This document shows positions 24,700 to 62,518 of a stretch of 64,000 bases of DNA, in pieces (positions within the stretch are counted from its first letter, which is position 1; each line of letters starts with the position of its first letter). The notes below the pieces were generated by a model that was not told the origin of the DNA, did not search any database, and saw nothing but the letters and a program-made list of their open reading frames with translations. Position numbers and translations under genes: made by a program. This DNA is from Naegleria gruberi. Its lineage: Eukaryota. The stretch lies in the NCBI GenBank assembly GCA_000004985.1, contig GG738845.1; one strand, 5' to 3'.

Positions 24700-25728
24700 A
24701 TGAGTCACAAATATCAAAAGGATTTCTCTCTGCCCAATAACTTTCAAGAGACTTTACGGGACTTTACTAGAGAGGTTTTAAGATCTCAACCTGGTAACAT
24801 TTATCGATTTGGATATGATTATTTTATGAAGCTGGCTAAGGAAATGGGAGAAAGTACACCTGTGGTTACTGCTGGAAACAATGCCTCCAAAGTTAATGAG
24901 GAGGAACCAGAACAAGAATACAAGGTTGTACATACAAATAATAATGATTTACATACTTTGGATGAATCTCTGAACGCTAGTAGTATTAAACCAAACGAAG
25001 ACGACTACCAAAATATTTCCAGCATTTCCATACAAGATAAACCTGTGAGCATTAAATCTCAAGACAAATTCGAAGACAATGATGTCGAAGAGGAGGGTGT
25101 AGATGAAGATCCAGAAGGTGGTGCAAATTCTGCTTTTGAAGGAGACATGCTCCAAGCTATTGTACAAATTTCAGACCAAGAGCTTTTAAATATTATCTAT
25201 AATCAATTAAGCTCGTTCGGATATGAAAATCTTCCTATGGATGTCATTAAGGATGAAATCAAAAAAGTTTTCAACTATCAACTCCCTGAAGCAATCATGC
25301 TCTTTGTTATGGCAGAATCAGAAATTTCAGAGGATGGTACAATTGAAATTGGTCAATTCTCTCAACAAGTGACAAATGTTTTGAAAACAATTGTGGGAGT
25401 AGAGTCGTTTATGGAAGAAATTAATGTCAATGAGGCCGATGTTGTTCATGGACTCAACAAGATGGAACTGGATGAAGAATTGAAGGCCATTTTCGAAAGA
25501 GCTGACGAAGGCCAAACAGGTGCCATTTCATTCGCCAAGTTCAGAAGAGAATTGTTGGAAGCAGACTTGGACCTTTCTAGAAGAGAGGTGAATATTGTTC
25601 TCTCTGAGGCTGAGTCAGATGAGCATGGTCAAGTTCTGTATGAGAAGAGTATTAATAGTGCTCACAGACTTTTATTCATTGCAAATATGTTTGATGATTT
25701 TTGTAATGAAAATGATTTACATTTCTAA
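24700..25728 (+). CDS. Protein with an RIIa (PKA-RII/Dpy-30-like dimerisation-docking) domain and a C-terminal EF-hand-like region, resembling flagellar radial-spoke or AKAP-binding proteins
   Basis: The N-terminus PNNFQETLRDFTREVLRSQPGNIYRFGYDYFMKLAKE fits the RIIa consensus. The C-terminal ADEGQTGAISFAKF looks like a degenerate EF loop. An E2F-like motif lies 30 bp upstream of the ATG. Confidence 0.55.
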   Translation: MSHKYQKDFSLPNNFQETLRDFTREVLRSQPGNIYRFGYDYFMKLAKEMGESTPVVTAGNNASKVNEEEPEQEYKVVHTNNNDLHTLDESLNASSIKPNEDDYQNISSISIQDKPVSIKSQDKFEDNDVEEEGVDEDPEGGANSAFEGDMLQAIVQISDQELLNIIYNQLSSFGYENLPMDVIKDEIKKVFNYQLPEAIMLFVMAESEISEDGTIEIGQFSQQVTNVLKTIVGVESFMEEINVNEADVVHGLNKMELDEELKAIFERADEGQTGAISFAKFRRELLEADLDLSRREVNIVLSEAESDEHGQVLYEKSINSAHRLLFIANMFDDFCNENDLHF

Positions 25729-26714: not shown

Positions 26715-29700
26715 TTAAACAATTTCTGGTTTATCATTGACTGTTCTGTGGTGGGTTAAGGTTTGTCCAATTCCAACTGAGCTAGAGGTACCTGCTGTAA
26801 TCGGTTGACCAATGCTTGTTTGATCCTTTTCATCTGTGAAACTAGTACCCATATTTGTTTGATTTTTAAAGTTTCTGCCACTCTTATTTCCACCCTTTGA
26901 TTTGAACAATTTTCTTACAATTAAACAACAGCAACAAATAAAGCAAATCACACCGACAATAATAGCGTCATAAACATAACGATTATATCGAACATTATTG
27001 TAGTGCTCCATCAATTCATCAATATAGAGGAATGGATTTTCTTCACTGTCTTGTAATTCAAATTGGGATCTATTTGGGAAGTACCAATTGTAAAAGTTGT
27101 GTAACATTTCAACAACCTGTTCATTTGGTTTGGTTTGATTCATATCATCATTCAAACAAATGAATTTAGGTCTGTTTCTTCTCAATTCGTCCAATTGATC
27201 TCCAACTTTATCTTCATCATCTCTAATCATGTGGAATCCTACTTGAGATAAATCTTCCAATGTAAATGGAAAACGTTGTTCGCTCTTGTGTGCCTTTGTT
27301 TTAACAATATCGCTTAGGCCACTATTAACAAAATCTTCAAGAATTGGTTTAGTTCTGAATGCAGAGTCATCCATTGCTTGATATCGTGACAATACAAGCC
27401 TTGTATAATTGAGATGGCCATACAGGATATTTCTTACTGTTTGATGATACTCCTTAAATTCAGAAAAATCTTCAAAATAGGACCAAGATTTCCACTTCTT
27501 GTTACTCTTTGTACTGGCCCAGAAATAGGAACCAAATTCATCATCTTCTGAATTTTTTGTACTGTTTGTTGTTGCAGTTGTGTTAATAGGTGATGTACTA
27601 ATTTCTGGTGTTGGAGTCTTCTTTTTGCCCTTCTTAGTTTTCTTTTTTGGTTTTTCTAATCCTCCTCTTTCCTTTTTCATTTCATCATTAATTGTATTAA
27701 TACTAGATGTAATATTGGTATGTAAATCAGTTAATTTGGAGAGAGGTATCTTGTACTTGTGATACATCAAGTTAGCTAAATTTCTAATTTCATAATTATC
27801 CAAAACATTATCATTGTTTGTATCAACATGTTCCCTCAAAAATCTAGAGACATTATAGTGAATACCTTCATGCATTAAATAGTAGAAATAGGTAAATGTA
27901 TACTGCATATCACTTGAGGATCTAAATCTATTGGATGATGTGACATTGAATTCATATTCCCATTTCTTTTGAAGTTCGAACATAATGTCCCTATCAATCA
28001 TGTGAGGCATGTGAGCTGGTACCTTACGAGAGGCCCTACCATATTCTCTATTCAACAACTTATTCACATGAATTAAACTATCTCCAAACTTATCGAGGAG
28101 TTTTCTACCGATTCTAACAGGTGTGGAGCTTTCTGTGGTGACGCTGTTACTGCTGTCATCATAGTTTTCACTCTTGATTTCTCTTTCAATTCTCTTTTTG
28201 ATATTTTCATATTTTTCTTGATTCTTTTCCTTTTCTGCTAGATTGAAACGGAGGGAATTAACAATTTCTTCAGGATGAGATTGAACAATAGGAATTCTGT
28301 TAGAGTATGATGGTCGAATATTTGATGGAGACGAGATGCCCAATAACTTTCTGTTTTTCTTTTTTAACAACTTTTTCAAATATCTCAATTCATCACTATT
28401 GAGATTATCGATATTATAATTGTCGGCTTCTTGAGTTGGAGACTTTTCTGGTGTTTTAGGAACTTGCTGCTTCTCGGTTGCAATGACTGGATTGGTTTTG
28501 ATAACATTTTCAGAGATGTCATCAATTTCTGTTGCCTTTTCTTTTTGTTTGGTTTCTGTCTTGATATCAACAACTTTTTTAGTCAAATCATCTTCAATCT
28601 TTTTAGTGACAGGTTTGATTTCAGTATCCTTTTTAGCTTGTATAGTGTCGAGTGTACTAGTTGGGGTTTCTTTGGTGACAGTTTCCAAAGTATTCTTCAT
28701 TGGTTCAGTTTTCTTTTCCTCCAATTTAACTTGAGCTTTTTTGGTGTCAATAGATGCAGGACGAACAGCTTGGTTTTCAGTAATGACTGGATTGGTTTTG
28801 ATAACATTTTCAGAAATATCGTCAATTTCTGTTGCCTTGGTTTCTAACTTGGATCCAGATTGTTTCTTGGTATTTGTAACTGACTTGTCATTTTCTTGAG
28901 TATCAGAATTGATATTGTTCCAACTATTAAACCAATCAGTTTCAGGAGTTGTCTTGGTGGCTTTTTCTGCAGGTTTGGTGCTATTGTTCTTTCCAACAAT
29001 AGCATTAAGCTGAGTTTTAGAAAAGTAGGTAGAAACCACCAATGCCTTATTGTAGTTCTTGTCAGCTGCTAACTCTGATTCTTGTGATTCATGAATACCA
29101 AAAATGCTTGTTTCATTTGATAAGTTAAATTTTTTGGCAATGTAATTGAATGTATGATTTGAAACAACCTTTACGATGAAAGATTTTGTAATTGTCAATT
29201 TAGTGCCCAATTGTTCAAAAGTAGTGGAGTGAGTGTTTTGGAATGTATCAGTTTTGGAGGTATCATTAAGAACTCTCTCAGCTTCCAAAGAAACCGGGAC
29301 ATGTTCTTCATAGAAATTGGTATTGTTACTGTACTTGGTAACATTGGACTTGAGAGATTGATAATTAAAAGTGAATATGAGGAGCTTTTCCTTTTGTGAA
29401 ATTGTTGAACTTCTAACTAGCTTTTCATTTTCGTGATTGCCATTAGTAATTTGAGCATCTTTGAATATCTTACTCAAATCCAAGTAAATGGAAGGTTCTA
29501 TATTACGGACATAGATAACTGAAATGCTATTTTCCAATTGTACATGCTCCAATTCTGTCTTTAATTCCTTAAACTCGCAATCTCCAGCATCATAACCACA
29601 TTCTTTAACGTTACATGGTCTATCACAAAAACGATCACCAATCCATGAATCAGAACAAGAGGCTGAGCAATAATTCTTAGTATTAGTGGATGACCAAAAA

Positions 29701-31285
29701 CTATTAGAATTACTACCATAATTATAGTTACCACCATAGTTGCCATAACTTGATGAAGAGCTTGAAGATCCGTAAGAGAATCTCACATTTGGACCAACGC
29801 AATCACCACCATCAAAATCACATTGAGTAACATTGCAAGAAACGTCACAATAACCATCACCTAACCAAGATTCTTGGCATCCTTCATGGCATGGAGGAAC
29901 TTCCCAACTGAGGAATACTTTTTGTCCAGTTGAGTGACTATAAAAATCCTCTGGATACACATCGTTACCAAACATGACATCATCATTCAAGTAAATAAAC
30001 TTTTTAGAAAGGCCAGGAATTCTATGAATTTGAGATTCAATAGAAGGTGAGCTGAAAACTGGTAAATGGATTGGATTTCTGTAAACATCGGCATGTTTAA
30101 CAATTTTAACCTTTGGATTCTTTACGTTTAACCAGCTTGGCACTTGACCACTTGTCACAATATAAACATTTCTGACCCATGGAGCAAATCGTTCCAAACT
30201 ACGTAAACTGTATCTCAACTCATCATTATCTCTAAATCTGTTACTACTATTGGTATCATCAGTTTTGGTAGCATTCTTAGTTGTTGTACCATTGTTGATA
30301 ATTTCTGAGTCATTTTTAACTTTAGGAGTATTTTCCTTCTTTGATTTCTTAGTGGTCTTTTTTGTCAAAGCCTTGTTAGTTTTTGCTTTCTTTCCAGTGG
30401 CACCCTTTTTTTCAACCTTAGTATGTTGTTGTTTGGTAACTGGTGGTTTGGTTGTCTTTTTTGATGAATTGGTTTTCTTTGTAACAGGTGCTTTAGTCTT
30501 TTTGGTTACTTTGGCATTCTTATTGGTTTGAGGAATTGATTTCTTATTAGTTTCTTGTTTCTTCTTGCTTGTGGATTTCACAGAGAGTAATCTTCTTCTC
30601 TTCTTTGTTTTGTTTTCTTGTGTTTTCACATGTGCATTTCCTACTCCTTTCAAATGGTAATTATTGGTTGTTTTCTGATTGGATTTGCTAGAATCAGTAG
30701 TACTAGTAGTAGTAGTATTGGAAGACGTCTTGGTAGCAGCACTTTCAATTGTTTTAGTATTGTCAACATTAGATTTTTCTTCCTTCTCCTTTTCCAAAGC
30801 ATTAAATCGTTTCACTAAATTCTTGTGTATTGGATCGGAACCATTGACCCAAGTATAAACAATATCCATAGGTTCATAACACAATTTAGAAACTGAATTA
30901 ATTTTCATAATATTATCTCTATACATCCTATTACAATAATTTCCCAATTGTGATGCTTCATCATCCTATATTAAATATTTAAATAAATAATTTAAAAATT
31001 GAAATGTTAAAATTATTGAGAATAAATTCATTCGCATTATTATAAACTTACCACAAGGGTAGTCTTATCAGTGATGGAAATATCCAAAATAGATTGTAAC
31101 AAGTGCAATGCCGTATTTAAAGTAATAAATGTAATAATAATCAACAATATAGCACCCCATTTAGATGTTGCAAAGGAATAGAATGAACGTTGAATAGACT
31201 TTGAAAATTGATCATTAAAACAGGAACAACATTTCTTTCCTCTCTTATGATCCAATCCGACATTAGCAGTCGATGAGGGTAACAT
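26715..31285 (-). CDS. UDP-GlcNAc:lysosomal-enzyme GlcNAc-1-phosphotransferase alpha/beta homolog (GNPTAB, Stealth family). Two exons, 31052..31285 and 26715..30965, with an 86-nt intron.
   Basis: Stealth CR1 is DIVYTWVNGSDP. CR2 and CR3 are ELRYSLRSLERFAPWVRNVYIVTSGQVPSWLN..FIYLNDDVMFG. There are two Notch/LNR repeats, CHEGCQESWLGDGYCDVSCNVTQCDFDGGDC and CSASCSDSWIGDRFCDRPCNVKECGYDAGDC. CR4 is VPAHMPHMIDRDIMFELQKKW, and a C-terminal TM segment is present. The first exon encodes the N-terminal signal-anchor WGAILLIIITFITL and ends at a GTAAGT donor. Splice frames match ORFs 31040..31285 and 26715..30947. Confidence 0.85.
28481..28845 (-). repeat. Internal direct duplication inside GNPTAB, two ~70-nt copies about 290 nt apart
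   Basis: The segment aatgactggattggttttgataacattttcag(a/g)(g/a)at(g/a)tc(a/g)tcaatttctgttgcctt occurs at about 28481-28552 and again at about 28771-28845. Both copies encode ..KATEIDDISENVIKTNPVI... Confidence 0.75.
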
Positions 31286-33393: not shown

Positions 33394-33993
33394 CTAGTCA
33401 TCCCACGACGACTGTTGTTTTGGAACATTCTCAAAATCTACTTCCTTATCATACTCATATCCCTCATCACCAGGTCTGATAACGTTGAATTTCTTGTCCA
33501 TCTCTGCCTTTACTCTCCTTAGGGTGACATCATCTAGCTTGTTCAAGTCTTTCTGTTGTGTTTCACTGTCTTCCTCATCCTCGTCAAAGTTATCGTCATC
33601 ACCTTGGTGATGGTACTTAGAGGTTGTATTATTGGTATTTGGGGAAGGTTTACTTTGGTTTTGTATAGATTGAGGCCTATTATCTGGAGGTAAAAATGAT
33701 TTTGTAGTAAAATCGACCAGTTTTCTGATCATTTTTGTAGTTTGATTTTCTGGAATGTGGGAGGCTAAATTCTTATGGTGCTTCATCAGGACATTAGACT
33801 TGATGTGTTCAACCAATTCATCTTCCTCTAATTCCGGATAGTTTTGTACAATGTAGTCTTCCAAGTAAATTTTTCGATGTCTGAGTTCCTTCTTTCCTTT
33901 CTTTGAAATTGTTGTATATTCAATTACGAGAGCACATAATTTCAATCTAATTCCAATTCTTAAAACATTTACATCATCGTTATTTGAGGGCAT
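33394..33993 (-). CDS. CEP19-like centrosomal/ciliary protein
   Basis: The 199-aa ORF contains DLNKLDDVTLRRVKAEMDKKFNVIRPGDEGYEYDKEVDFENVPKQQSSWDD. This closely resembles human CEP19 [42 protein letters not shown]..SCGWD, and the N-terminal IRL..LVIEY segment matches as well. Confidence 0.65.
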   Translation of the reverse strand: MPSNNDDVNVLRIGIRLKLCALVIEYTTISKKGKKELRHRKIYLEDYIVQNYPELEEDELVEHIKSNVLMKHHKNLASHIPENQTTKMIRKLVDFTTKSFLPPDNRPQSIQNQSKPSPNTNNTTSKYHHQGDDDNFDEDEEDSETQQKDLNKLDDVTLRRVKAEMDKKFNVIRPGDEGYEYDKEVDFENVPKQQSSWDD

Positions 33994-34171
33994 TTTTTTT
34001 GTAGATTTTTGGAGGCAAAAATTTCGTTCAAATAAGCTTCAGTGCTACATTAAGGGAGCCTAAATATGGTAAAAACAATTCTTGTTTGTGGAAAAATTCT
34101 TCTTCTTGAAACCTATAACATGCAATATGTGTTGTTGATACATCCTACAAAGTAGTGAAACATGCTTGTTA

Positions 34172-34867
34172 TTATTCTCTCTCTGTATTATTCAATATGT
34201 ATTTTAAGGAGAGAGGATAGAAATTCTCAAAGAAATCATATTTTCTATAATCTAGATAATTGTGGGGCCACTTATCAATTCCAATCTTTTCCTTGATCTG
34301 ATAAAATTTTCTTTTAAGAGTTGATAAACTACATCCAAGAACATTGCATGCTTGCTGTTGAGTAAGATGCAAGAGACGTATCATCTCATCATCTGTAATA
34401 CTATCCACACTTCTTTTTCCTCTTTTTCCAATCATGGATGCATCGACTCGAATTATGGAAACATGTTGATCCTTTGAATAATTAAAATATGAATTCTTAT
34501 GAACATCTACTGGGCTTAACATTTGATTTTCCATGAATGTATAAACAACTTGTTCAAAGGGTTTTTCGCTAGTATTCGAACTATTGGAATCTCTATTCTT
34601 CATTTCGTACTTTCTTTTGATTTTTTTAGTTTTTTTCACTCCACCAATCCTGAATTTCGACATGTATTCGAATTGTGAGTTGGATGTTAAGCATGTGTCA
34701 TCAACATCCTCATGCACATGCATGCCATCCGTTGTCACATTAGCAGATGTGTTGTACGCAGATTCTGGTGATGGTAATCTCATACTATTGTTGTGTTGGT
34801 GTTGTTGTTGATTTCCCCTATTAATGTTTAAATAGATGTTATGGTTTGATGTTGTTTGATGCATCAA
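34172..34867 (-). CDS. RWP-RK domain transcription factor
   Basis: The C-terminal ITDDEMIRLLHLTQQQACNVLGCSLSTLKRKFYQIKEKIGIDKWPH matches the RWP-RK domain, with a KWP variant of the RWP triplet. The N-terminus is Q/N-rich. Confidence 0.55.
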   Translation of the reverse strand: MMHQTTSNHNIYLNINRGNQQQHQHNNSMRLPSPESAYNTSANVTTDGMHVHEDVDDTCLTSNSQFEYMSKFRIGGVKKTKKIKRKYEMKNRDSNSSNTSEKPFEQVVYTFMENQMLSPVDVHKNSYFNYSKDQHVSIIRVDASMIGKRGKRSVDSITDDEMIRLLHLTQQQACNVLGCSLSTLKRKFYQIKEKIGIDKWPHNYLDYRKYDFFENFYPLSLKYILNNTERE

Positions 34868-35855
34868 GGCTGCGGAGGAGGATGTTATATTGGCTAGTGT
34901 TGAGATTTGTAGATGGATTCAAAAGCTCTGAGTACTCCATTGATGTGAAGTTGTGTTTTTTGTTGGTTTTTAATGATGGCAATGACTAGAAGAAAGAACA
35001 TAGATGAGCGAGTAAAGCTCGTCAGTGTAGATCGTTCGTTATTGGTTGGGAAGTTTTTTTGTTGTGTGTTGTTGGTGGTTCAAGGGTTGATTTCTTTGGA
35101 AAGAATAGACCTTTACTGGCCCAATTTATTATCGTTGCAACACTGGTTGAAGACAGAGAGTGTCCTTGACAATTCCATCGATTATCTTTTGGGTAATGGT
35201 GTTTTTGTGGTTTGAGATAATTTTGTTTAAGAAACTAACCAATCACATTATTCATTGTAAAATACACAACAAAAATTGAACCCAAATCATGTTTCAGATT
35301 TCTTATTATCAAGCAATGTGATATGACAGAACTATTTATTAATAATTTACATAAAATGTGATTCAAAATTTAAAACTCAAGAAAGATATTCTTCATAGTC
35401 TTCCTTCGAACTGTTAGAGAGGGATTAATTTAGAGTGATGAGGAAAAGCTATAAACGAAATAAACAATCAAGCTAATGATGGAGAGGTAAATAAAATCTA
35501 TTTAACAAGTCCGATTATTAATTATTAAAATATAATTGTTATTAAATTATCAATATCAACAACAACACATACTCATCAAAATAATTTCCCACGGTTCCAA
35601 CATGTAGTTAACACTCATAATTTGATAGTGTTTGAATTTTCTCTGAAGAAAGCCGATCATCTTGTTGCAATTTTTTATTTGATTTTAATGTCCTTGCTGC
35701 GAAAGGCAAACAGAAAAGTTATCGTTGAAAGTAATATCCTCTATCACCCTTCAACTAATTGGATGATAGAATTGTCGGTTCATGTAAGGAACGAGTAATA
35801 AGAAGAGCAAGATATAAGTAATTGGAGGAAACAACATTAAATAGATGATAAATAT

Positions 35856-35866
35856 TTCCCGCCAAG
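35856..35866 (+). promoter_or_regulatory. E2F-like motif TTTCCCGCCAAG, 29-39 bp upstream of the GAS8/DRC4 ATG
   Basis: Seen in the sequence as aatatttcccgccaagtg. It is a perfect match to TTTCCCGC. Confidence 0.5.
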
Positions 35867-35894
35867 TGTTATTTACGAAAAAACATCAAAAAAA

Positions 35895-37295
35895 ATGAGC
35901 TCAAACCGAAGACCCAACAATAATAACACAGCACCTCCCCAACCCACAACAGCCGCTGCTAATCCAGCTGATGCTAAGAATTATGAAGAGTTGAAGGCGG
36001 AATTGGAGGAGACAAAGAGAAATAGAAATTACTACCAATTGGAAAGGGATAGAATAAATTCCTTCTGGGATATTACAAAGAAGGAAGTGGAAAATCTCAA
36101 GGGCGAGGTAAGGAACATGCAGAGGGAGATGGAAGAAAATGAAGAAAGACATCAGGTAGAATTAAAAGTGTACAAACAAAAAGTTAGACATCTTCTCTAT
36201 GAACAAAAGATCACCATTGATAGATTAAAAATTGAAAGTGAGAATGCTTTAAAGATCCAAGCTGATGAATTTAGGCAAAAATTAGCTCAATTGAAATCGG
36301 ATAAGAGAAAATTAAAAAGAGAACTCCACTCTATGGAAATAGCTTACCAAGAAGAAATCAAGGGGCTTAAAACGAATCAAGACAAAAACTTGACAAAACA
36401 AACTGAGACATTTGCAAGAAAACTTAAAGAGACCCAACTGAAATATGAAATGAAAATGAAAAAATTAAGAGAAGATTTAGAATTGAGAGGGAGAAAAGAA
36501 ACTGAAGAAATTGAAGAAAGAAAAAATACTCACATCAAACAATTAATGGAAAAACACAAACTTGCCTTTCAACAAATGAAGGATTACTATATAACTATTA
36601 CTAGAAATAACTTGGAATTAATCAAAACTCTGAAAGATGAAGCTGCACTGATGAAACAGGAAGAAGCAGACAATGAAAAACTCATGTTGGAAATTGCTCA
36701 AGACAATAAGAGATTGAGTGAACCTCTTGTTAAGGCTCTGGCAGAAGTTAAAAAGCTCAGAAATGAATTGGCCAACTACCAAAAGGACAAGCTATCTCTC
36801 AAAAATGCCAAGAGCAGGCTGGTCATGATGGAAGATCAATTGAAGAAATTGAAATGGGAACATGAGATTTTAGAACAAAGCCATAAGCAAGTGCACAGAG
36901 AACGTGACGATCTTTACGATAAGTTTGAAAAAACTATTCATGAAGTTCAACAAAAAACACTGTTCAAGAATCAAGTTCTTGAAACAAAGGTTTATGCACT
37001 TCAAGAAACTTTGGAAAAGAAGGATGCCCAAATTCATGAAATACTCAAAGCTTGTAACATAGATGAACACACAGCCGAAGAAATCTCTGAAGGTCTTGAT
37101 AATGTCATTGAAGAAAAGAACAACACGATACGAGAACTCAAATTTGAAATTGAAAAGATGAAGAAGAGTTATAATGATTTGATACGAGTAATTAATGCCA
37201 AGATGCAACAGTATGGAATTGAGGATGAGTTAGGTATTGAACCAATCGCTAACGTTGTTGATGAAGGTGTCCCAGGTAGAGTATGGGTAAAATAA
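35895..37295 (+). CDS. GAS8/DRC4, nexin-dynein regulatory complex subunit 4 (axonemal)
   Basis: Single 466-aa coiled-coil ORF. It contains RNYYQLERDRINSFWDITKK...EERHQVELKVYKQKVRHLLYE, close to the human GAS8 segment [41 protein letters not shown]. Collinear similarity continues through the C-terminus: KWEHEILEQ.., ELYDKF..IHEVQQKT.FKN.VLE.K. Confidence 0.85.
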   Translation: MSSNRRPNNNNTAPPQPTTAAANPADAKNYEELKAELEETKRNRNYYQLERDRINSFWDITKKEVENLKGEVRNMQREMEENEERHQVELKVYKQKVRHLLYEQKITIDRLKIESENALKIQADEFRQKLAQLKSDKRKLKRELHSMEIAYQEEIKGLKTNQDKNLTKQTETFARKLKETQLKYEMKMKKLREDLELRGRKETEEIEERKNTHIKQLMEKHKLAFQQMKDYYITITRNNLELIKTLKDEAALMKQEEADNEKLMLEIAQDNKRLSEPLVKALAEVKKLRNELANYQKDKLSLKNAKSRLVMMEDQLKKLKWEHEILEQSHKQVHRERDDLYDKFEKTIHEVQQKTLFKNQVLETKVYALQETLEKKDAQIHEILKACNIDEHTAEEISEGLDNVIEEKNNTIRELKFEIEKMKKSYNDLIRVINAKMQQYGIEDELGIEPIANVVDEGVPGRVWVK

Positions 37296-45090: not shown

Positions 45091-45127
45091 TTATTACATT
45101 TTGCACAAACTTTGACAAAAAAAACAT

Positions 45128-46291
45128 ATGGCCATCGCTACCTCTCCAAAGTCTTCAGTGCTAAAAGCCACAAACACAAGCACGGGAGCAACCTCAACTC
45201 CACCAACATCACATACATCCCCGAAGAGAAATAATAACAACAATAAGGATGGACAACAAGTGTTGAGGAAGATTTATAGGTGCGACTCTGAAATTAAACG
45301 TATGAAGGAACAAGATGAAAAGCAACTACGAATAGAAAGATTAAAACAAGTCAGACAAATGGCTATGGATATTGCAAAAAACAAGACAAAACAATATGCA
45401 CAAGCAAAGGAAAAGGAAAATCAAAGTAATTTGAAGGTAATCAAAAAAGCATGGGAAGAAAGAAAGGAAGAAGAGATTGATCAACTCCAAACAGAGTTGG
45501 ATTATGCTAGAAAAAAAGCTGGTGAAGCCAATAGGAATGCACTCCAATTTAATAAGGAATTCCATCTTCAACAACAGAAGAAACATGAGCAAAATAAGGC
45601 AAACGCTTTAATAGCTCAACAGAGGTTTGATAAATGTGTCAGTATTGTCAAACAAAGACAGGTCGAGAATCAAAAGAAAAAGGATAATCTCTTTGAAAGA
45701 ATTGAAAAATCAAAGAACATGGAATATCCAGAAATTGAGCCTGTCCACAATGGATATGAAAAGTTGTTTGCAGTTCCATCTCGTGACCTGAATGATGTAG
45801 TGGCTGGTTGGAATCCTACCAAAAAGAGAGAAGACCAGGGAATTTACGAGACGACGTTTAATCACCAAATGGTTTTAGAACCAACCTCACCAGAAAAGCA
45901 AACAGCTATTAAAGTTAATCAACATGTGGTCAAACATTTTGATAAACAGGCTGGTGTTGATGTAAATAATGAACAAGCCGAATTGACCTTAGAGGAAAAA
46001 AAGAGGACAGCTTTGCAAAGAGCATTTTCAGAAAAGAGATTTGCAAGAAAAGCCGCAGAAAAGGTGCGAAATGAAAAATTTAATGAGATTATTGTTGAAG
46101 AATTAGAACGAGTATCCAAAATTGATAGACAACTTAAAGTTGAGTCCATACAGAATCCTTCTAGAAATACTCTGGCAGACAATCAATACAAGAAGAAAAA
46201 GCAAATGGAACTGGAAAGAAAATTTGAAGAGCTCTTCAGAAATAGGGTCCATTTTGCAGATAAACCAGAAGAAAAGAGCAGTTACTTTTAA
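45128..46291 (+). CDS. Hypothetical coiled-coil protein, K/E/Q-rich
   Basis: 387-aa ORF. An E2F-like motif, ATCCCGCCAAAA, lies 38-49 bp upstream of the ATG. Confidence 0.4.
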   Translation: MAIATSPKSSVLKATNTSTGATSTPPTSHTSPKRNNNNNKDGQQVLRKIYRCDSEIKRMKEQDEKQLRIERLKQVRQMAMDIAKNKTKQYAQAKEKENQSNLKVIKKAWEERKEEEIDQLQTELDYARKKAGEANRNALQFNKEFHLQQQKKHEQNKANALIAQQRFDKCVSIVKQRQVENQKKKDNLFERIEKSKNMEYPEIEPVHNGYEKLFAVPSRDLNDVVAGWNPTKKREDQGIYETTFNHQMVLEPTSPEKQTAIKVNQHVVKHFDKQAGVDVNNEQAELTLEEKKRTALQRAFSEKRFARKAAEKVRNEKFNEIIVEELERVSKIDRQLKVESIQNPSRNTLADNQYKKKKQMELERKFEELFRNRVHFADKPEEKSSYF

Positions 46292-46295
46292 TAAA

Positions 46296-47006
46296 TTATT
46301 GTTTTACAAATTCTCCTGAATCAGTTTGGTCGTAATCTTCATTGAAAGTTGCATTGCCCTTATTGGAAGTAGTTGGTGCAGCTCTCACTTGCTCATTGGT
46401 TTCATAATACTTGACAGCTCTCTTGGAATCAACATAATTGAAAAGTCTTTCCATAATATCAGAATCCCTCCATCGTTCTGGTAATTTTTCTTTCCATTCA
46501 GGATCTTGTCTATCAGTTTCAGTTGCAATAAGCCAATTATACAAGTCACTGTCATGTTCACAGAGTAAATCATAAAATTCCTCAAGATCTGACCATTGAG
46601 TCATCTTTGGAACATTCTCTCTAGCAAAACCACCCAAGAAGAGTTCAGTTTCAACACGACCTCTATTTCTACAATACATGAGGATACGACGTTTTATATT
46701 GTCCATAAAAGCTTGTTCCTCTACTGGTGTCATATCTTTGATTGATTTTCCTTCTGTTACTGCCTTTTCTAAAATTTCATGAAAATATGGTGGACGGAAG
46801 TCTGGAATACTCTTGATAATCTCTTCATCAGTTAAATATTCTTCTTGTTGTTCATTTTCGGAAATGTCTTCTTCCGCATTATTATTTGAAAATTTAATAC
46901 ATTGTGTTGAAAAACGTGCCAATGAGAGATGATTAAAATTCTTGGTGAGAGGTATGTGGTTAAATTTCTTGATTGAGCAAAATTGATACTTGATTAAACG
47001 ATTCAT
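46296..47006 (-). CDS. Succinate dehydrogenase assembly factor 2 (SDHAF2/Sdh5, FAD-insertion factor) with an N-terminal presequence
   Basis: KRRILMYCRNRGRVETELFLGGFARENVPKMTQWSDLEEFYDLLCEHDSDLYNWLI matches the flavinator domain RR.LYESRKRGMLE..LL..F....M....L..YD.LL...D.D...W. Confidence 0.7.
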   Translation of the reverse strand: MNRLIKYQFCSIKKFNHIPLTKNFNHLSLARFSTQCIKFSNNNAEEDISENEQQEEYLTDEEIIKSIPDFRPPYFHEILEKAVTEGKSIKDMTPVEEQAFMDNIKRRILMYCRNRGRVETELFLGGFARENVPKMTQWSDLEEFYDLLCEHDSDLYNWLIATETDRQDPEWKEKLPERWRDSDIMERLFNYVDSKRAVKYYETNEQVRAAPTTSNKGNATFNEDYDQTDSGEFVKQ

Positions 47007-47160
47007 TTTTTTTTTAAATTGATAGTAAAATTAATTGAATATTTAATTTTCATTCTCCGAAATTTATTGGGTTAAATACAAAATCAAGAAATTGAAAAGA
47101 ATAATAAAGAGAATGAATTAATAAGGTTGGTGGTTAGTGTTTTATTGGTACAATTTATAT

Positions 47161-47628
47161 TTACTTTTGCATCATCATCTTGACGAATTCAGTATAGTTG
47201 ATTTGGTTATCACCGTCAATATCGGCTTCACGAATCATTTCATCAACTTCTTCGTCTGTGAGTTTTTCACCTAGGTTGCACATAACGTGTCTGAGTTCTT
47301 GAGCAGAAATGAAACCGTTTCCGTCCTTATCGAAAACTTTGAAAGCTTCCTTGATTTCTTCTTCGTTATCAGTATCCTTCATCTTCTTGGCCATCATTGT
47401 CAAAAATTCAGTGAAATCTATTGTTCCATTACCATCAGCATCAACTTCGTTAATCATGTCGTGGAGTTCTGCTTCAGTTGGGTTTTGTCCCAATGATCTC
47501 ATAACAGTTCCCAATTCGCTTGTAGTAATAGTACCATCACCGTCCTTATCGAACAGAGAGAAGGCTTCCTTAAATTCAGCGATTTGTTCTTCAGTTAATT
47601 CGTTATTGCTAATAGCTTCTCTACTCAT
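47161..47628 (-). CDS. Calmodulin of 155 aa with a 7-10-residue N-terminal extension, the flagellar CaM-1 type
   Basis: [72 protein letters not shown]... carries four canonical EF-hands. The ORF track begins at 47730 only because it treats the TTG at 47728-47730 as a start. The first ATG is at 47626-47628. Confidence 0.9.
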
Positions 47629-47719
47629 TTTGTATACAAGGGTCTTCGTTAGGGATTTTTTTAAGGTTATGTTTTTATTCGGTTGATGTATTGGCCAATT
47701 TATTGTAACTACAGTATTT

Positions 47720-47731
47720 TTTGGCGCCAAA
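47720..47731. promoter_or_regulatory. Perfect 12-bp palindromic E2F-type site, TTTGGCGCCAAA, in the divergent calmodulin / CCRK-like promoter
   Basis: Seen directly in the sequence. It matches the E2F consensus TTTSGCGC on both strands. It lies about 92 bp upstream of the calmodulin ATG. A second half-site, TTTGGCGC on the minus strand (gagcgccaaac), lies at about 47843-47852. Confidence 0.45.
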
Positions 47732-48257
47732 GATTTACAACGTTGTTTTCGTAGGCGAACTGGTTAGAAAGCGCGTCTTCTAGATTAATTGGCCTTTCAT
47801 CGCTAATCACACTCACTACAAAATTCAGAACCACAAGAGATGAGCGCCAAACAAGTGCTATCAGTGCGACAATTAGGAAAATAGCGAACCCTTAATGAAT
47901 GGAAGGTTATTATCTTCTCATAAACAATGATCACTTTATAAACCAATACTTTTTCTCATCAGCATATATGGTTTTAACATTGTTTTTTTTGAAATATGTC
48001 GTAATGGGTTATGGTTGAATACAGGTCCTACTACTAGTTCCTTATTGGATGTTTCCCTCATGTGGAAGTTGTGCCCCATGAGTTGAACTTTGTTAAGGTA
48101 CTTTGTCATCCCTATATTCACAACTTTTGAAGAGTGACCAATTGTTATCTTTGAGTATTGGTGGGTTTAAAAGGATGATTTTTGTTCGAACACGCTCATA
48201 CAATGGTTTCATACAAATGAATCAAAGAAGTTGGTTTTGTATGCAACAAAGTAAAAA

Positions 48258-49285
48258 ATGGCCACAAACTACTTGATGGAAAATTATACAATTATTGAGA
48301 AGATTGGTGAGGGAACATTCGGACAAGTATTAAAAGCAAAAAGGTAAGTAGTAAAAGGAAGATAATGATCTTTAATATAATTTAGGAAGGCTGATGGACG
48401 AGTTGTGGCCTTAAAGAAAATTAGAATTAGGAAACAAGAATTTGAAGACTTTCCGAAAAATGTAATTAGAGAAGCAAAAAGTCTTCAACATGTGTGCCAC
48501 AATAATGTCATCAAGTTGTATGATGTCTTTGTGAATGGATCATCTCTTGTTCTCTCATTAGAATTTATGAAAACAGATTTGGCAAGAATTATTAAAGCCC
48601 AAAGGACACCCTTCCTTGAGTCTCATATCAAATGTATAATGCTAATGATGTTAAAGGGTCTCCACAATTGTCACACCAATAGTATCATGCACAGAGTATG
48701 TAGGAAAGTGTAATTATTTAGAAATTAATTATGTGGAATTATTAGGACATCAAACCTGCCAACTTACTTTTCAATCACAACGGAGAGTTAAAACTGGGAG
48801 ATTTTGGATTGGCTACGTTGTATCTTGGAAAGAATGAATCTTACTCACATCAAGTTGCAACAAGATGGTACAGAGCTCCAGAACTTTTGTATGGAAGTAG
48901 ATCTTATGATTGTAAAGTAGATATTTGGGCAGCTGGTTGTGTCATGGCAGAATTGTACAATCTTTGTCCCTTATTCACTGGTGAAAATGATATTGATCAA
49001 TTATATAAGGTACTTTCACTTTTGGGAATTCCTTCAGAAAATAATTGGCCAGGAGTTTCCAAGTTGCCAGATTTTGGCAAGATAACCTTCTCGAAAATTA
49101 AAGTGAGAACGATCAGTGAACTAGTTCCAGGAGCTCCTGATTTGGCTCTTGATCTTATGTCACATCTATTAAGATTTGACAATGATGAAAGATATAGTGC
49201 TGAGGAGGCCTTAAGACATCCATACTTTTTTAGTGAACCTTTGCCTTGTGATTTTTCAGAGCTTAAATTGCCAAACAAGATGTAG
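48258..49285 (+). CDS. CDK20/CCRK-like cyclin-dependent kinase. Three exons: 48258..48343, 48386..48695, 48746..49285.
   Basis: The spliced protein is MATNYLMENYTIIEKIGEGTFGQVLKAKR|KADGRVVALKKIRI...NSIMHR|DIKPANLL..LGDFGLA..YSHQVATRWYRAPELLYG. The introns are 42 and 50 nt, with GTAAGT or GTATGT donors and a TTTAG or ATTAG acceptor. The sequence is closest to CDK20/CCRK in the PNxxxRE-type regulatory-helix region NVIREAKSL. Confidence 0.8.
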
Positions 49286-61258: not shown

Positions 61259-62518
61259 ATGGGTAATTCATCTTCGGGTGGAGGAGGTTCCTCTTCAACA
61301 ACCACAACCAATCCATCTGCAAGTCAAGTTGCTGATTTAAAGATACAATCAACAGAGTATGATTTTGCATCTAAATTGTTCAAGAGCTTGATTGGAGTGG
61401 CTGGACATGGTAATAATTTGATAATTTCTCCTCTATCAATTTTTGTTGCATTATCGATGGTTATGTGTGGCGCCAATGGTAAAACTCTTCTTGAGATGAG
61501 TAATGCACTTTCATATGGAGATTCTGATTTCTCTCAAGTGAAAGATAATCAATTGAAGCAGTTTATTGATGGAATTGTGGAACATTTATCTTATTCTGAG
61601 AATACATTATCATTGGCCAATAATATTTATATTTCCAATAGTATTGAATTACAAGATGCTTTTAAAAACACAATGAAGGAAATATTCAAAGCAGATTTGA
61701 AGCAGACAGATTTCACTCATTCAACTAAAGCTGCTAATGAAATTAATGAATGGGTTTCTGAAAAGACGGCTGAAAAAATTAAGGATCTCATTAATCCATC
61801 ATCCATTAATGCAAGTACGAAATTAATTTTGGTGAATGCCATAACTTTCTTTGGATCCTGGAAAAATACATTCGATATCAAACAAACAGATGAAGATGGA
61901 GAATTTTACACAGTGAATGGAGTGGTTAAGAGTGTGCCACTCATGAAAAAACGATTTGTAAAATTGCCATACGGAGAAGATGATTCTTACAAATGGGTCA
62001 CATTAGAATATTCAGAATATAATTTTGCAATGAAATTGTTTCTTCCCAAGACACCAAACACAAAAGTTTCTGATAAGGTAGAATCAAAATTTGATGAGTG
62101 GATTACTAAGAAACTATCTCAAAGATCGAATCTATCCAAATTTCCAACGAGTGAGAAAAAACTCGAATCGTTCATTCTTCCAAGATTTGAGGCTGAATAT
62201 TCATCCTCACTAAATGAAATTCTTCAAAAGGCTCCCTTTTCGATGACATCTGCATTCTCAGCAGGTGCTGATTTCAGTCAAATGGACAAGAATAATTCTG
62301 TAATGATTGATAAGGTTTTTCACAAAGCTGTCATTAAGGTTAATGAGGAAGGTACAGAGGCTGCAGCTGCCACTTATGTGAGTATGAGAGCGAAATCTAA
62401 AAAGGTAAAGAAAGAGGTTGTTTATTCATTTAAAGCTGACCAACCTTTCTTTTATATGATTACATATAAGGATCACATCTTATTCCTTGGCAAGACTAAT
62501 AATCCTAATAAAAAATAG
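61259..62518 (+). CDS. Serpin (serine protease inhibitor) with an N-terminal MGNSSSG motif
   Basis: The hinge is NEEGTEAAAATYV. The Lys-rich reactive-centre region is SMRAKSKKVKKE, and the C-terminal serpin signature is FKADQPFFYMI. The N-terminal MGNSSSGGGGSSS fits the N-myristoylation pattern MGxxxS. Confidence 0.85.
   Translation: MGNSSSGGGGSSSTTTTNPSASQVADLKIQSTEYDFASKLFKSLIGVAGHGNNLIISPLSIFVALSMVMCGANGKTLLEMSNALSYGDSDFSQVKDNQLKQFIDGIVEHLSYSENTLSLANNIYISNSIELQDAFKNTMKEIFKADLKQTDFTHSTKAANEINEWVSEKTAEKIKDLINPSSINASTKLILVNAITFFGSWKNTFDIKQTDEDGEFYTVNGVVKSVPLMKKRFVKLPYGEDDSYKWVTLEYSEYNFAMKLFLPKTPNTKVSDKVESKFDEWITKKLSQRSNLSKFPTSEKKLESFILPRFEAEYSSSLNEILQKAPFSMTSAFSAGADFSQMDKNNSVMIDKVFHKAVIKVNEEGTEAAAATYVSMRAKSKKVKKEVVYSFKADQPFFYMITYKDHILFLGKTNNPNKK

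Follow-up and report, generated by a model that had tools for sequence, protein, structure and literature searches.

Two divergent genes of Naegleria gruberi, one encoding a flagellar-type calmodulin and the other a kinase linked to the cilium, are separated by a short region that contains a perfect palindrome. A preliminary description of the locus proposed that this palindrome is an E2F site serving both genes in a shared bidirectional promoter, and the question is whether it does so or belongs to one of them. The window referred to here is the whole 64-kb stretch of N. gruberi DNA that was analyzed, and the sample, a small one, comprised this one window and ~100 kb of orthologous loci.

The identities and the arrangement proposed earlier for the two genes were borne out. 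The calmodulin ORF is intronless, encodes 155 amino acids, and is 100% identical to the N. gruberi flagellar calmodulin P53440, which identifies it as CaM-1 (XP_002683533). The kinase is an orthologue of CDK20/CCRK, as its best named matches outside the heteroloboseans are CDK20. The two genes lie head to head, with ATGs at 47628 (minus strand) and 48258 (plus strand) and a gap of 629 bp, i.e., less than 1 kb, between them (Table 1). On balance, we favor reading the palindrome as a putative proximal E2F-type cis-regulatory element of the CaM-1 promoter, within a flagellar gene set, that is not shared with CDK20.

Table 1. Coordinates of the genes and sequence elements discussed (window numbering)
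Feature	Position	Strand	Remarks
TACCCGCCAA	6655..6664	-	~31-40 bp before the start codon at 6624 (-)
ATTCCCGCCAAA	24658..24669	+	42 bp before the start codon of the radial spoke protein 7 (RSP7) homologue (24700-25728)
TTGCCTCCAA, one-mismatch version	34009..34018	-	16-25 bp upstream of the CEP19 ATG (33394-33993, -)
TTTCCCGCCAAG, E2F-type	35855..35866	+	40 bp upstream of the DRC4/GAS8 ATG (gene 35895-37295)
ATCCCGCCAAAA	45079..45090	+	49 bp upstream of the ATG of coiled-coil ORF45128 (45128-46291)
CaM-1 coding sequence	47161..47628	-	Identity to P53440
Conserved 13-mer ACCTTAAAAAAAT (CaM-1 sense strand)	47655..47667	-	63-73 bp downstream of the palindrome core
Perfect 12-bp palindrome TTTGGCGCCAAA, E2F-type	47720..47731	.	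Consensus match
GCGCG patch	47771..47775	.	Third GCGC of the gap
Distal E2F-type half-site TTTGGCGC (GCGCCAAA on + strand)	47844..47851	-	216-223 bp upstream of the CaM-1 ATG
TTTTGTATG	48235..48243	+	15-23 bp before the CDK20 ATG; same distance in N. fowleri CDK20
CDK20/CCRK orthologue	48258..49285	+	3 exons: 48258-48343, 48386-48695, 48746-49285

The palindrome and its conservation upstream of CaM-1

The E2F/DP sites of animal and plant cell-cycle promoters have the consensus TTTSSCGC, with TTTSGCGCSAAA as the symmetric optimum, and the DHFR promoter carries overlapping inverted E2F sites (TTTCGCGCCAAA), located at the transcription start of TATA-less promoters. The 12-bp palindrome, which was found where it had been reported, matches this consensus. 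It lies 92 to 103 bp upstream of the CaM-1 start codon and 527 bp away from that of CDK20, and the window has no other match to TTTGGCGCCAAA even when one mismatch is allowed (0.09 expected). The second half-site, reported at about 47843 to 47852, was also located and lies 407 bp from the CDK20 ATG. The word TTTSGCGC has three matches in the 64 kb (0.35 expected), all of them inside the 629-bp gap, and none of 100 shuffles reached this number.

Conservation in related species, which had been suggested as a check, was examined in N. lovaniensis and N. fowleri, whose CaM-1 orthologue is 98% identical to that of N. gruberi and has the same N-terminal extension. The palindrome core TTGGCGCCA is kept upstream of CaM-1 in both species (L006:4885-4893 in N. 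lovaniensis and L007:4871-4879 in N. fowleri), about 116 to 130 bp from the ATG, and the sites there read ATTGGCGCCA, matching TTTSSCGC at seven of the eight positions. The promoters were compared by exact words, because the unalignable background keeps global MAFFT alignment from lining up short motifs, and such an alignment failed to do so here. Upstream of CaM-1, N. gruberi has 9-mers in common with N. fowleri and N. lovaniensis only within TTGGCGCCA and ACCTTAAAAAAAT, which follow each other in the same order, and a common G+C-rich 9-mer arose by chance in 1% of the shuffles. The conserved 13-mer ACCTTAAAAAAAT would belong to the leader (5'UTR) or else be a TATA-like element. The N. lovaniensis and N. 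fowleri sequences become alignable from the palindrome onward, and the sole GCGC of the 10.5-kb N. fowleri locus is the palindrome-core site of CaM-1.

Conservation of the distal half-site is partial, since N. lovaniensis has a counterpart, GTGGCGCT, ~190 bp upstream of CaM-1, but the CaM-1 upstream region of N. fowleri has none. In a second N. gruberi strain, the distal site is unchanged, although it is flanked by variants. As regards the palindrome, its match to the E2F consensus, its occurrence far above chance, and its phylogenetic conservation make a regulatory role likely.

This element may already have been described by Fulton, Lai, and Remillard (1995, J Biol Chem 270:5839), whose title reportedly names a DNA element common to CaM-1 and the co-expressed flagellar tubulin genes. 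The element of that paper, from the same gene and the same upstream region, may be the palindrome element. A literature search gave no paper in which E2F is connected with the flagellar genes of Naegleria.

The motif at DRC4 and at other genes

The occurrence of E2F-type sites in the window is non-random and promoter-proximal. TTTSSCGC has four matches (0.94 expected), the fourth of which is in the DRC4 promoter (TTTCCCGC at 35855 to 35862), and SCGCCAA has nine (1.46 expected). Six of these nine positions are within 150 bp upstream of an ATG, a space that makes up 9.1% of the window (P = 4e-5). Sites of the TTSSCGCCAA type are located 31 to 54 bp upstream of the ATG at DRC4, the RSP7 homologue, ORF45128, and a PHD-finger gene and 92 to 130 bp upstream at CaM-1. 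The palindrome belongs to this motif family, TTSSCGCCAA, of which TTTGGCGCCAAA is the fully symmetric form; in Naegleria and related heteroloboseans, its members are found ~30 to 130 bp upstream of the ATG of flagellar genes and a few others, probably just upstream of the transcription start. One further match, TGGCGCCA at 61468 to 61475, lies inside the coding sequence of a serpin and was rejected as an instance, being ascribed to coding sequence and chance.

Five genes of the window carry the motif. Three of them are flagellar (CaM-1, DRC4, and RSP7, the last identified by a match to PDB chain 7jtk_M with an E value of 3.5e-26 and by a Pfam RIIa domain), and two are not recognizably so. ORF45128 has no match in Pfam or PDB. 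The gene starting at 6624 on the minus strand is the 5' part of a PHD-finger gene and is not obviously flagellar, because its homologues are PHD-finger proteins of ~870 amino acids. An exact site is thus present at three of the five recognizable cilium-related genes versus 2 of about 36 to 42 others (hand-calculated hypergeometric P of ~0.01 for this one 64-kb window). The cilium-related genes of the window without an exact site are CEP19, which has the one-mismatch version TTGCCTCCAA, a near-match that was left out of the instance count, and CDK20, which has no exact motif within 400 bp upstream. The link to the flagellar program that had been drawn from CaM-1 and its neighbor is supported by these positions and appears to be wider than first proposed, as the site is also found at DRC4/GAS8 and RSP7.

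The DRC4/GAS8 site is conserved across species. Five species have it 40 to 54 bp before the ATG: N. gruberi, N. lovaniensis, N. fowleri, Willaertia magna, and a heterolobosean represented by loci L005 and L011. The orthologous sequences are TTTGGCGCCA at -44 in N. lovaniensis and N. fowleri, TTTCCCGCCAAA at -54 in W. magna, and TTGGCGCCAA at -42 in L011. N. gruberi and W. magna have the form TTTCCCGCC, and the other three have TTTGGCGCC. The S positions thus swap between G and C at orthologous sites while the CGC core is retained, and this is the interchange that E2F sites tolerate. In each of two 13-kb loci (L012 and L013), the DRC4 site is the sole TTSSCGC, and seven of the nine TTSSCGC matches in 98.8 kb of other heterolobosean loci are in CaM-1 or DRC4 promoters. 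One Naegleria-like species (L017 to L019) has only a degenerate TTTCCCtCGCAAA at DRC4, and no site was found at two more distant DRC4 loci (L015 and L016). Among ciliary promoters, conservation therefore covers three species for the CaM-1 site and five for the DRC4 site.

The presence of the motif at the PHD-finger gene and ORF45128 also allows for a different identity of the site. The motif could be functional but bound by a lineage-specific factor other than E2F, or it could be a generic core promoter element of a subset of genes, in which case both the likeness to E2F sites and the flagellar link would be coincidental. The invariant core, which is SCGCCAA and not the full TTTSSCGC, would fit such an element, as would the unusual nearness to the ATG and the ATYTAC-like word that follows downstream of the motif in many instances. 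However, the instances conform to TTTSSCGC(C)AAA, even in the GG/CC swap at the orthologous DRC4 sites, axonemal genes account for three of the five carriers in the window, and both E2F and DP genes, with the RRIYD motif intact, are present in Naegleria. We regard a non-E2F or generic element as a serious possibility, albeit a rather improbable one.

Candidate E2F-family factors and flagellar differentiation

Naegleria forms basal bodies and flagella de novo in ~1 h, and the genes involved are transcribed in a synchronous burst. The classical targets of E2F are S-phase genes, a point against a flagellar E2F site. In the explanation that we favor, an E2F-family protein would bind the site via its RRxYD recognition helix, and this binding would gate the transcription burst that starts ~20 min after amoebae receive the trigger to differentiate into flagellates. 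We infer from the sites both the identity of the binder and their position adjoining the transcription start, and induction of the genes would be specific to differentiation. In line with this, amoebae have no CaM-1 mRNA, and transcription of the gene is highest ~40 min into differentiation (PMC2139841). The candidate binders are two E2F_TDP proteins, one of which has tandem DNA-binding domains like those of E2F7/8, and one DP protein. In a published table, N. gruberi and three N. fowleri strains are each listed with two E2F_TDP proteins and one E2F_TDP+DP protein (PMC8296547, Additional file 5), and the N. fowleri protein Nfowleri986_g10803 has two E2F domains with KRRIYDILNVLE (PMC8296547). 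A metagenome scan with an alignment of the E2F DNA-binding domain returned 80 loci, all from other organisms, with no heterolobosean contig among them.

The sites resemble the E2F/DP sites of cell-cycle promoters in sequence (TTTGGCGCCAAA and TTTCCCGCCAAA), in their tolerance of G or C, in their occurrence in either orientation, and in their position near the gene start, and the factor family is encoded in the genome. They differ in that the carriers here are axonemal or flagellar genes (calmodulin, DRC4, and RSP7) and not replication genes, and the Naegleria sites are putative. The vertebrate E2F4/5-DP1-Multicilin (MCIDAS)/GEMC1 system offers a parallel in which E2F acts outside S phase, in non-dividing cells, and in the mass de novo formation of basal bodies and cilia (PMC12183034), and the cell-biological task of that multiciliated program is the task of Naegleria differentiation. 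Whereas the main targets of vertebrate E2F4/5 are centriole-biogenesis genes and FOXJ1/RFX, the latter in turn driving the axonemal genes, the E2F-type site in Naegleria is directly on axonemal genes, and there is no RFX or FOXJ1. RFX, FOXJ1, and XAP5 are absent from Naegleria according to a 2025 review, which acknowledges the regulators of its cilia genes as an open question (PMC12183034). The animal X-box/RFX and FOXJ1 motifs can be considered functional analogues of the site, as they are short promoter-near motifs that are common to ciliary genes and kept at orthologues, but they are unrelated to it in sequence and factor family, and both factors are reported absent from Naegleria (PMC12183034).

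The conservation of the palindrome in other Naegleria species and its recurrence near the start of other flagellar genes mark a factor of the E2F family as a candidate switch for the formation of flagella. A broader and more tentative proposal is that such a factor may directly control the entire amoeba-to-flagellate program in Heterolobosea, as its master activator or as a repressor that is released, acting via TTSSCGCCAA at the transcription starts of genes for basal bodies and axonemes, the flagellar tubulins among them. If true, the link of E2F to mass centriole and cilium biogenesis would be ancient or would have arisen again by convergence in a lineage without RFX and FOXJ1; if confirmed, it would bear on whether the part that E2F plays in multiciliogenesis is new to animals or goes back to an older role of these proteins. 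The element also offers a concrete and cheap test of flagellar regulation, with a site that can be mutated and only three E2F/DP genes in Naegleria.

The same site could also be mainly repressive, with an E2F7/8-like protein or an Rb-bound E2F silencing flagellar genes in cycling amoebae, so that induction would be relief from repression. The preferred site of E2F7/8 is TTCCCGCCAAA, which counts for this reading. The tandem-domain E2F of Naegleria resembles the animal repressors E2F7/8, and CaM-1 mRNA is undetectable in growing amoebae (PMC2139841). However, the present data fit activation and repression alike, and a repressive site would be a variant of the E2F explanation and not another identity of the site. 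We consider a mainly repressive role unlikely.

The intergenic region and CDK20

A single palindromic E2F site driving CaM-1 and CDK20 as the shared bidirectional promoter of two cilium-related genes is suggested by the head-to-head arrangement, with 629 bp between the genes, by the symmetry of the site, and by the cilium link of both products. In addition, the distal GCGCCAAA is oriented to CDK20 as the motif is to RSP7, DRC4, and ORF45128. Divergent genes less than 1 kb apart with a symmetric site between them are also what is seen in the bidirectional promoters of compact genomes. However, the arrangement here is not conserved, the element is absent from the orthologues of the second gene, and it lies at one end of the gap. 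CaM-1 and CDK20 are paired only in N. gruberi and are not neighbors in N. fowleri, N. lovaniensis, W. magna, or the L005 heterolobosean. In N. fowleri, they are on different contigs and have different neighbors: CaM-1 lies downstream of an ABC-transporter gene, as it does in N. lovaniensis, and CDK20 adjoins a small CX9C-type gene and TFIIA-gamma, as it does in W. magna. The motif stays with CaM-1, and neither TTSSCGC nor GGCGCC was found upstream of CDK20 in four other heteroloboseans. One of these organisms (L005/L011) has the palindrome at DRC4 and none at CDK20. The CDK20 ATG is 527 bp from one site and 407 bp from the other, whereas all other instances lie 31 to 130 bp from the ATG that they precede. 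Furthermore, the DNA leading from the sites to CDK20 is the most polymorphic stretch in the comparison of two N. gruberi strains; 7 of the 11 differences, an indel included, fall within 47805 to 48024, indicating that this stretch is not coding. A shared promoter is therefore very improbable, and in annotation, the gap would be better read as two separate promoters than as one.

The gap had also been called unusually GC-rich, which applies to its CpG and GCGC content but not to its GC content as such. The GC fraction is 0.350, versus 0.297 for all non-ORF DNA and 0.341 for the ORFs of the 64-kb window, and at least this value is reached by 24% of all 629-bp tiles. On the other hand, the gap contains 15 CpG dinucleotides (observed/expected ratio of 0.79 versus 0.42 for the window), and at least 15 are found in only 3.5% of the tiles. 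It also has three of the eight GCGC tetramers of the window (Poisson P = 8e-5). The GC-rich patches named in the preliminary description show no conservation; one of them ("gcgcgtcttc") contains the GCGCG patch, which does not fit the E2F consensus and is likewise not conserved.

That the palindrome arose by chance, or as a by-product of a hidden gene, an RNA gene, or a repeat in a long CpG-rich gap, is scarcely credible in view of the shuffle statistics and the cross-species conservation, even though 629 bp is a long gap for this genome and its GC content is coding-like. A hidden gene was rejected on the basis of the lack of tblastx or blastn similarity to the orthologous loci and of the strain polymorphism, including an indel, inside the short ORFs. 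A search of the gap against Rfam gave no match at the gathering score or at an E value of <= 1, and no tRNA was found. A repeat or mobile element was rejected because no second copy of the gap occurs in the window.

CDK20 might have a core promoter element of its own. The sequence TTTTGTATG, which recurs at the same distance upstream of N. fowleri CDK20, gives a weak hint of such a separate element, and it is only a hint because the match is short (E = 0.6).

The gap between CaM-1 and CDK20

The genes flanking the 629-bp gap are, as the preliminary description had proposed, a flagellar calmodulin and a CDK20/CCRK kinase in divergent orientation. The first ORF encodes a 155-aa calmodulin with 100% identity to Naegleria gruberi flagellar CaM-1 (P53440 / XP_002683533). 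The kinase gene has two short introns, and the nearest relatives of its product are in N. fowleri (85%) and Willaertia magna (78%), beyond which the best named matches are the CDK20 proteins of many ciliated eukaryotes. Both E2F-type sites described for the gap, a 12-bp palindrome and a distal half-site, were confirmed. The word TTTSGCGC (S, G or C) has three matches in 64 kb (0.35 expected), all inside the gap, a number reached in none of 100 dinucleotide-preserving shuffles.

The gap had also been called unusually GC-rich. Its G+C content (0.350) is indeed above the non-ORF mean (0.297), but the statement was too strong, as about a quarter of the 629-bp tiles of the window match or exceed this value and coding DNA (0.341) is about the same. 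The compositional anomaly lies in CpG and GCGC content rather than in G+C content: the observed/expected ratio of CpG is 0.42 in the window, a strong depletion, and 0.79 in the gap, which holds 15 CpG (just 3.5% of 629-bp tiles have that many) and three of the eight GCGC tetramers of the window (P = 8e-5). The corresponding ratio of GpC in the same 64 kb is 0.78. The gap escapes the CpG depletion, resembling a small CpG island, a picture that would fit cytosine methylation in Naegleria.

The gap contains no tRNA and has no Rfam hit at a threshold as loose as E <= 1, no second copy of it was found elsewhere in the 64-kb window, and comparison with the orthologous loci at the nucleotide and translated levels revealed no similarity. 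A metagenome contig (L001 / L002; ENA ERZ929261, run ERR1078381) covers window positions 45190-48062 with 99.6% identity, indicating that a close N. gruberi strain was present in that sample. Over these 2.9 kb the two strains have 11 differences, 7 of them within 47805-48024; one of these seven is a single-base indel that falls within the short ORFs of that stretch. No difference occurs in the 176 bp adjoining the CaM-1 ATG, palindrome included, and the second strain keeps the distal site unchanged. This clustering marks the distal half of the gap as fast-evolving non-coding DNA and the CaM-1-proximal part as the constrained portion.

Coordinates of the features discussed (L numbers, loci from other species; other positions, window)
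Feature	Position	Organism	Remark
CaM-1	47161-47628 (-)	N. gruberi	
CDK20, exons	48258-48343, 48386-48695, 48746-49285 (+)	N. gruberi	
Palindrome	47720-47731	N. gruberi	TTTGGCGCCAAA
Distal site	47844-47851	N. gruberi	+ strand GCGCCAAA, - strand TTTGGCGC
Palindrome core	L006:4885-4893	N. lovaniensis	AAATTGGCGCCACA
Palindrome core	L007:4871-4879	N. fowleri	ACATTGGCGCCACA
13-mer ACCTTAAAAAAAT	47655-47667 (-); L006:4955-4967; L007:4944-4956	three Naegleria species	perfectly conserved
Twin-CX9C-type gene	L003:4474-4978 (-)	N. fowleri	upstream of CDK20
Twin-CX9C-type gene	L004:3738-4044 (-)	W. magna	upstream of CDK20
RSP7 (radial spoke protein 7) homologue	24700-25728	N. gruberi	PDB 7jtk_M, E = 3.5e-26
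CEP19	33394-33993	N. gruberi	cilium-related, Pfam/PDB annotation
DRC4/GAS8	35895-37295	N. gruberi	cilium-related, Pfam/PDB annotation
Coiled-coil ORF (ORF45128)	45128-46291	N. gruberi	no assigned function
DRC4 site TTTGGCGCCA	-44	N. lovaniensis (L012), N. fowleri (L013)	
DRC4 site TTTCCCGCCAAA	-54	Willaertia (L010)	
DRC4 site TTGGCGCCAA	-42 from true ATG at 2564	JGI heterolobosean (L011)	10-bp palindrome
ATTTAC/ATCTAC-like word	35871-35877; 34000-34006 (-); 45094-45099	N. gruberi	
ATTTAC/ATCTAC-like word	L012:5971-5977; L013:5971-5977; L010:2462-2467; L006:4898-4903	other species	
PHD-finger gene, ORFs	6277-6624, 5840-6265, 3647-4870 (-)	N. gruberi	probably one multi-exon gene
RWP-RK-domain gene	34172-34867 (-)	N. 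gruberi	between CEP19 and DRC4
Stealth-domain ORF	26715-30947 (-)	N. gruberi	1410 aa
Second palindrome TGGCGCCA	61468-61475	N. gruberi	inside serpin CDS 61259-62518

Orthologous CaM-1 and CDK20 loci

The CDK20 loci of N. fowleri, W. magna, and a heterolobosean from a JGI sample (L005) and the CaM-1 loci of N. lovaniensis and N. fowleri were compared with the window. The CaM-1 orthologues share 98% identity with the window protein, as well as its N-terminal extension. Among the species compared, only N. gruberi has the two genes head to head: CaM-1 of N. lovaniensis and N. fowleri follows an ABC-transporter gene of the same orientation, and CDK20 of N. fowleri and W. magna adjoins a small twin-CX9C-type gene, which is followed by TFIIA-gamma. 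On its downstream side, CDK20 of N. fowleri retains the PROPPIN/WD40 neighbour; with the upstream neighbour changed, this places the breakpoint of the N. gruberi rearrangement in the gap itself.

The comparison across related species suggested in the preliminary description showed that the palindrome core is retained upstream of CaM-1 in both N. lovaniensis (116 bp from the ATG) and N. fowleri (130 bp). Neither TTSSCGC nor GGCGCC nor SCGCCAA was found upstream of the CDK20 orthologues in the loci of other heteroloboseans, and the JGI organism, which contributed both L005 and the DRC4 locus L011, has a palindrome at DRC4 and none at CDK20. Since the core is conserved at CaM-1 and absent at CDK20 and the pairing is restricted to N. 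gruberi, the palindrome element belongs to CaM-1, and the proposal of a shared bidirectional promoter is not supported, although in N. gruberi the palindrome may incidentally influence CDK20 as well. CDK20 has a small block of its own (TTTTGTATG) ~20 bp from the ATG, equally spaced in both N. gruberi and N. fowleri, which hints weakly at a local core promoter.

In an exact-word comparison, the only blocks common to the CaM-1 upstream regions of N. gruberi and N. lovaniensis/N. fowleri were TTGGCGCCA and the 13-mer, which keep their order in all three species at a spacing of 63-73 bp; a shared G+C-rich 9-mer turns up in ~1% of shuffles. The upstream regions of N. lovaniensis and N. fowleri, although these are sister species, become alignable only at the palindrome, which in the N. 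fowleri locus is the sole GCGC in 10.5 kb. The distal site has a weaker counterpart (GTGGCGCT) in N. lovaniensis, and none was found in the N. fowleri CaM-1 locus. The 13-mer, with the palindrome on one side and the ATG on the other, may be an RNA element of the 5' leader or else a TATA-like box; its spacing from the ATG ranges from 26 to 44 bp, a variability that speaks against a fixed-spacing TATA box.

E2F-type sites at other genes

Genes of the window were annotated by Pfam and PDB matches. DRC4 has TTTCCCGCCAAG 40 bp before its ATG, the fourth window match to the E2F consensus TTTSSCGC, the RSP7 homologue has ATTCCCGCCAAA at -42, and at CEP19 a sequence that differs from the motif at one base (TTGCCTCCAA) occupies -16..-25. 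The motif is also carried by the coiled-coil ORF (at -49) and by the gene starting at 6624 (-), whose homologues, about 870 aa long, are PHD-finger proteins. Nine copies of the core SCGCCAA are present in the window, against 1.46 expected, a count that none of 100 shuffles attained; seven copies are outside ORFs, and six are within 150 bp upstream of an ATG, a space comprising 9.1% of the window (P = 4e-5). Axonemal genes (CaM-1, DRC4, and the RSP7 homologue) make up three of the five carriers, a small sample for which the hand-calculated P is about 0.01, taking about 41-47 gene starts with five recognisably ciliary. The second palindrome, which encodes ...CGANG... and has no promoter context, was attributed to chance.

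An E2F-type site is present at the equivalent DRC4 position in N. lovaniensis, N. fowleri, W. magna, and the JGI heterolobosean. In the last, a prokaryotic gene caller chose a TTG start codon 63 bp ahead of the real ATG (L011:2501-2563), so that the palindrome appears inside the called gene. The orthologous sites alternate CC/GG at precisely the two free positions of TTTSSCGC, and this switch is the strongest sequence argument for an E2F-like specificity of the site's reader. The DRC4 site is the sole TTSSCGC in the N. lovaniensis and N. fowleri loci (13 kb each), the L011 palindrome is the sole GCGC in 6.4 kb, and CaM-1 or DRC4 promoters account for seven of the nine TTSSCGC matches in 98.8 kb of heterolobosean DNA from outside the window. 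One further Naegleria-like species (L017-L019) has only a degenerate DRC4 site, TTTCCCtCGCAAA, and no motif was found at two more distant DRC4 loci (L015 and L016).

The RSP7 homologue, CEP19, DRC4, CaM-1, and CDK20 lie within ~25 kb, which is dense for ~45 genes; as these genes have other neighbours in N. fowleri and Willaertia, the grouping is not a conserved cluster. For the putative multi-exon PHD-finger gene (3647-6624; about 870-1000 aa), both parts of which are spanned by homologues P0380 and P0381, a set of 1.8 billion representative proteins yielded only five relatives. The Stealth ORF (CR1-CR4) also contains an LNR (Notch) domain, the architecture of GlcNAc-1-phosphotransferase (GNPTAB). 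RWP-RK transcription factors form a greatly expanded family of 39 genes in N. gruberi (Herman et al. 2021, PMC8296547).

Candidate reader and regulation

The earlier assignment of the palindrome as an E2F site is well supported by sequence match and conservation. By sequence it is a textbook E2F site, unlike known ones in the organism and in the set of genes carrying it. The palindrome is very probably a functional CaM-1 promoter element, its reader is slightly more likely than not an E2F-family protein, and a role in differentiation-specific induction is suggested tentatively; the combination of the three is considered fairly probable. A full-text search for Naegleria and E2F found no literature linking Naegleria flagellar genes with E2F. 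To our knowledge, any notice of the element 30 years ago was not as an E2F site. Such notice may lie in the report of a DNA element common to Naegleria flagellar calmodulin and tubulin genes (Fulton, Lai & Remillard 1995).

A metagenome scan for a heterolobosean E2F gene recovered none and was uninformative. Atypical E2Fs of the E2F7/8/DEL class bind TTCCCGCCAAA without DP. One N. fowleri protein has two tandem E2F domains and the recognition motif KRRIYDILNVLE (PMC8296547), the architecture of this class. In the transcription-factor domain table of Herman et al. 2021 (PMC8296547, Additional file 5), N. gruberi and three N. fowleri strains are each listed with two proteins of the E2F_TDP type and one of the E2F_TDP+DP type, and excavates have E2F, DP, and Rb (Medina et al. 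2016, PMC4862756). RFX, FOXJ1, and XAP5 are absent from Naegleria, where the regulators of cilia genes are unknown according to a 2025 review; in vertebrate multiciliated cells, E2F4/5 activate together with Multicilin (PMC12183034).

CaM-1 mRNA is absent in amoebae and appears ~20 min after the differentiation trigger alongside flagellar tubulin mRNAs, transcription peaking at about 40 min (PMC2139841). These observations lead to a broader testable hypothesis of how Naegleria flagellar genes are switched on: an E2F-family protein would bind the TTSSCGCCAA element immediately upstream of the transcription start, and its activity would change as cells exit the growth cycle, either by activation, as by E2F4/5 with Multicilin, or by relief of repression, so that the flagellar genes are transcribed in one synchronous burst. 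What the sequences show is that the sites exist, are non-random, occupy promoter positions, and are conserved; the factor, the start site, and the regulatory logic are inferred from these properties. In four genes no more than 31-49 bp separate the site from the ATG, and in most instances an ATYTAC/ATTTAC-like word, which could be an initiator, follows it within 2-8 bp (DRC4 in four species, CEP19, ORF45128, and CaM-1 of N. fowleri and N. lovaniensis). Together these suggest a position adjacent to the start, in which case the conserved CaM-1 13-mer would fall in the 5' leader.
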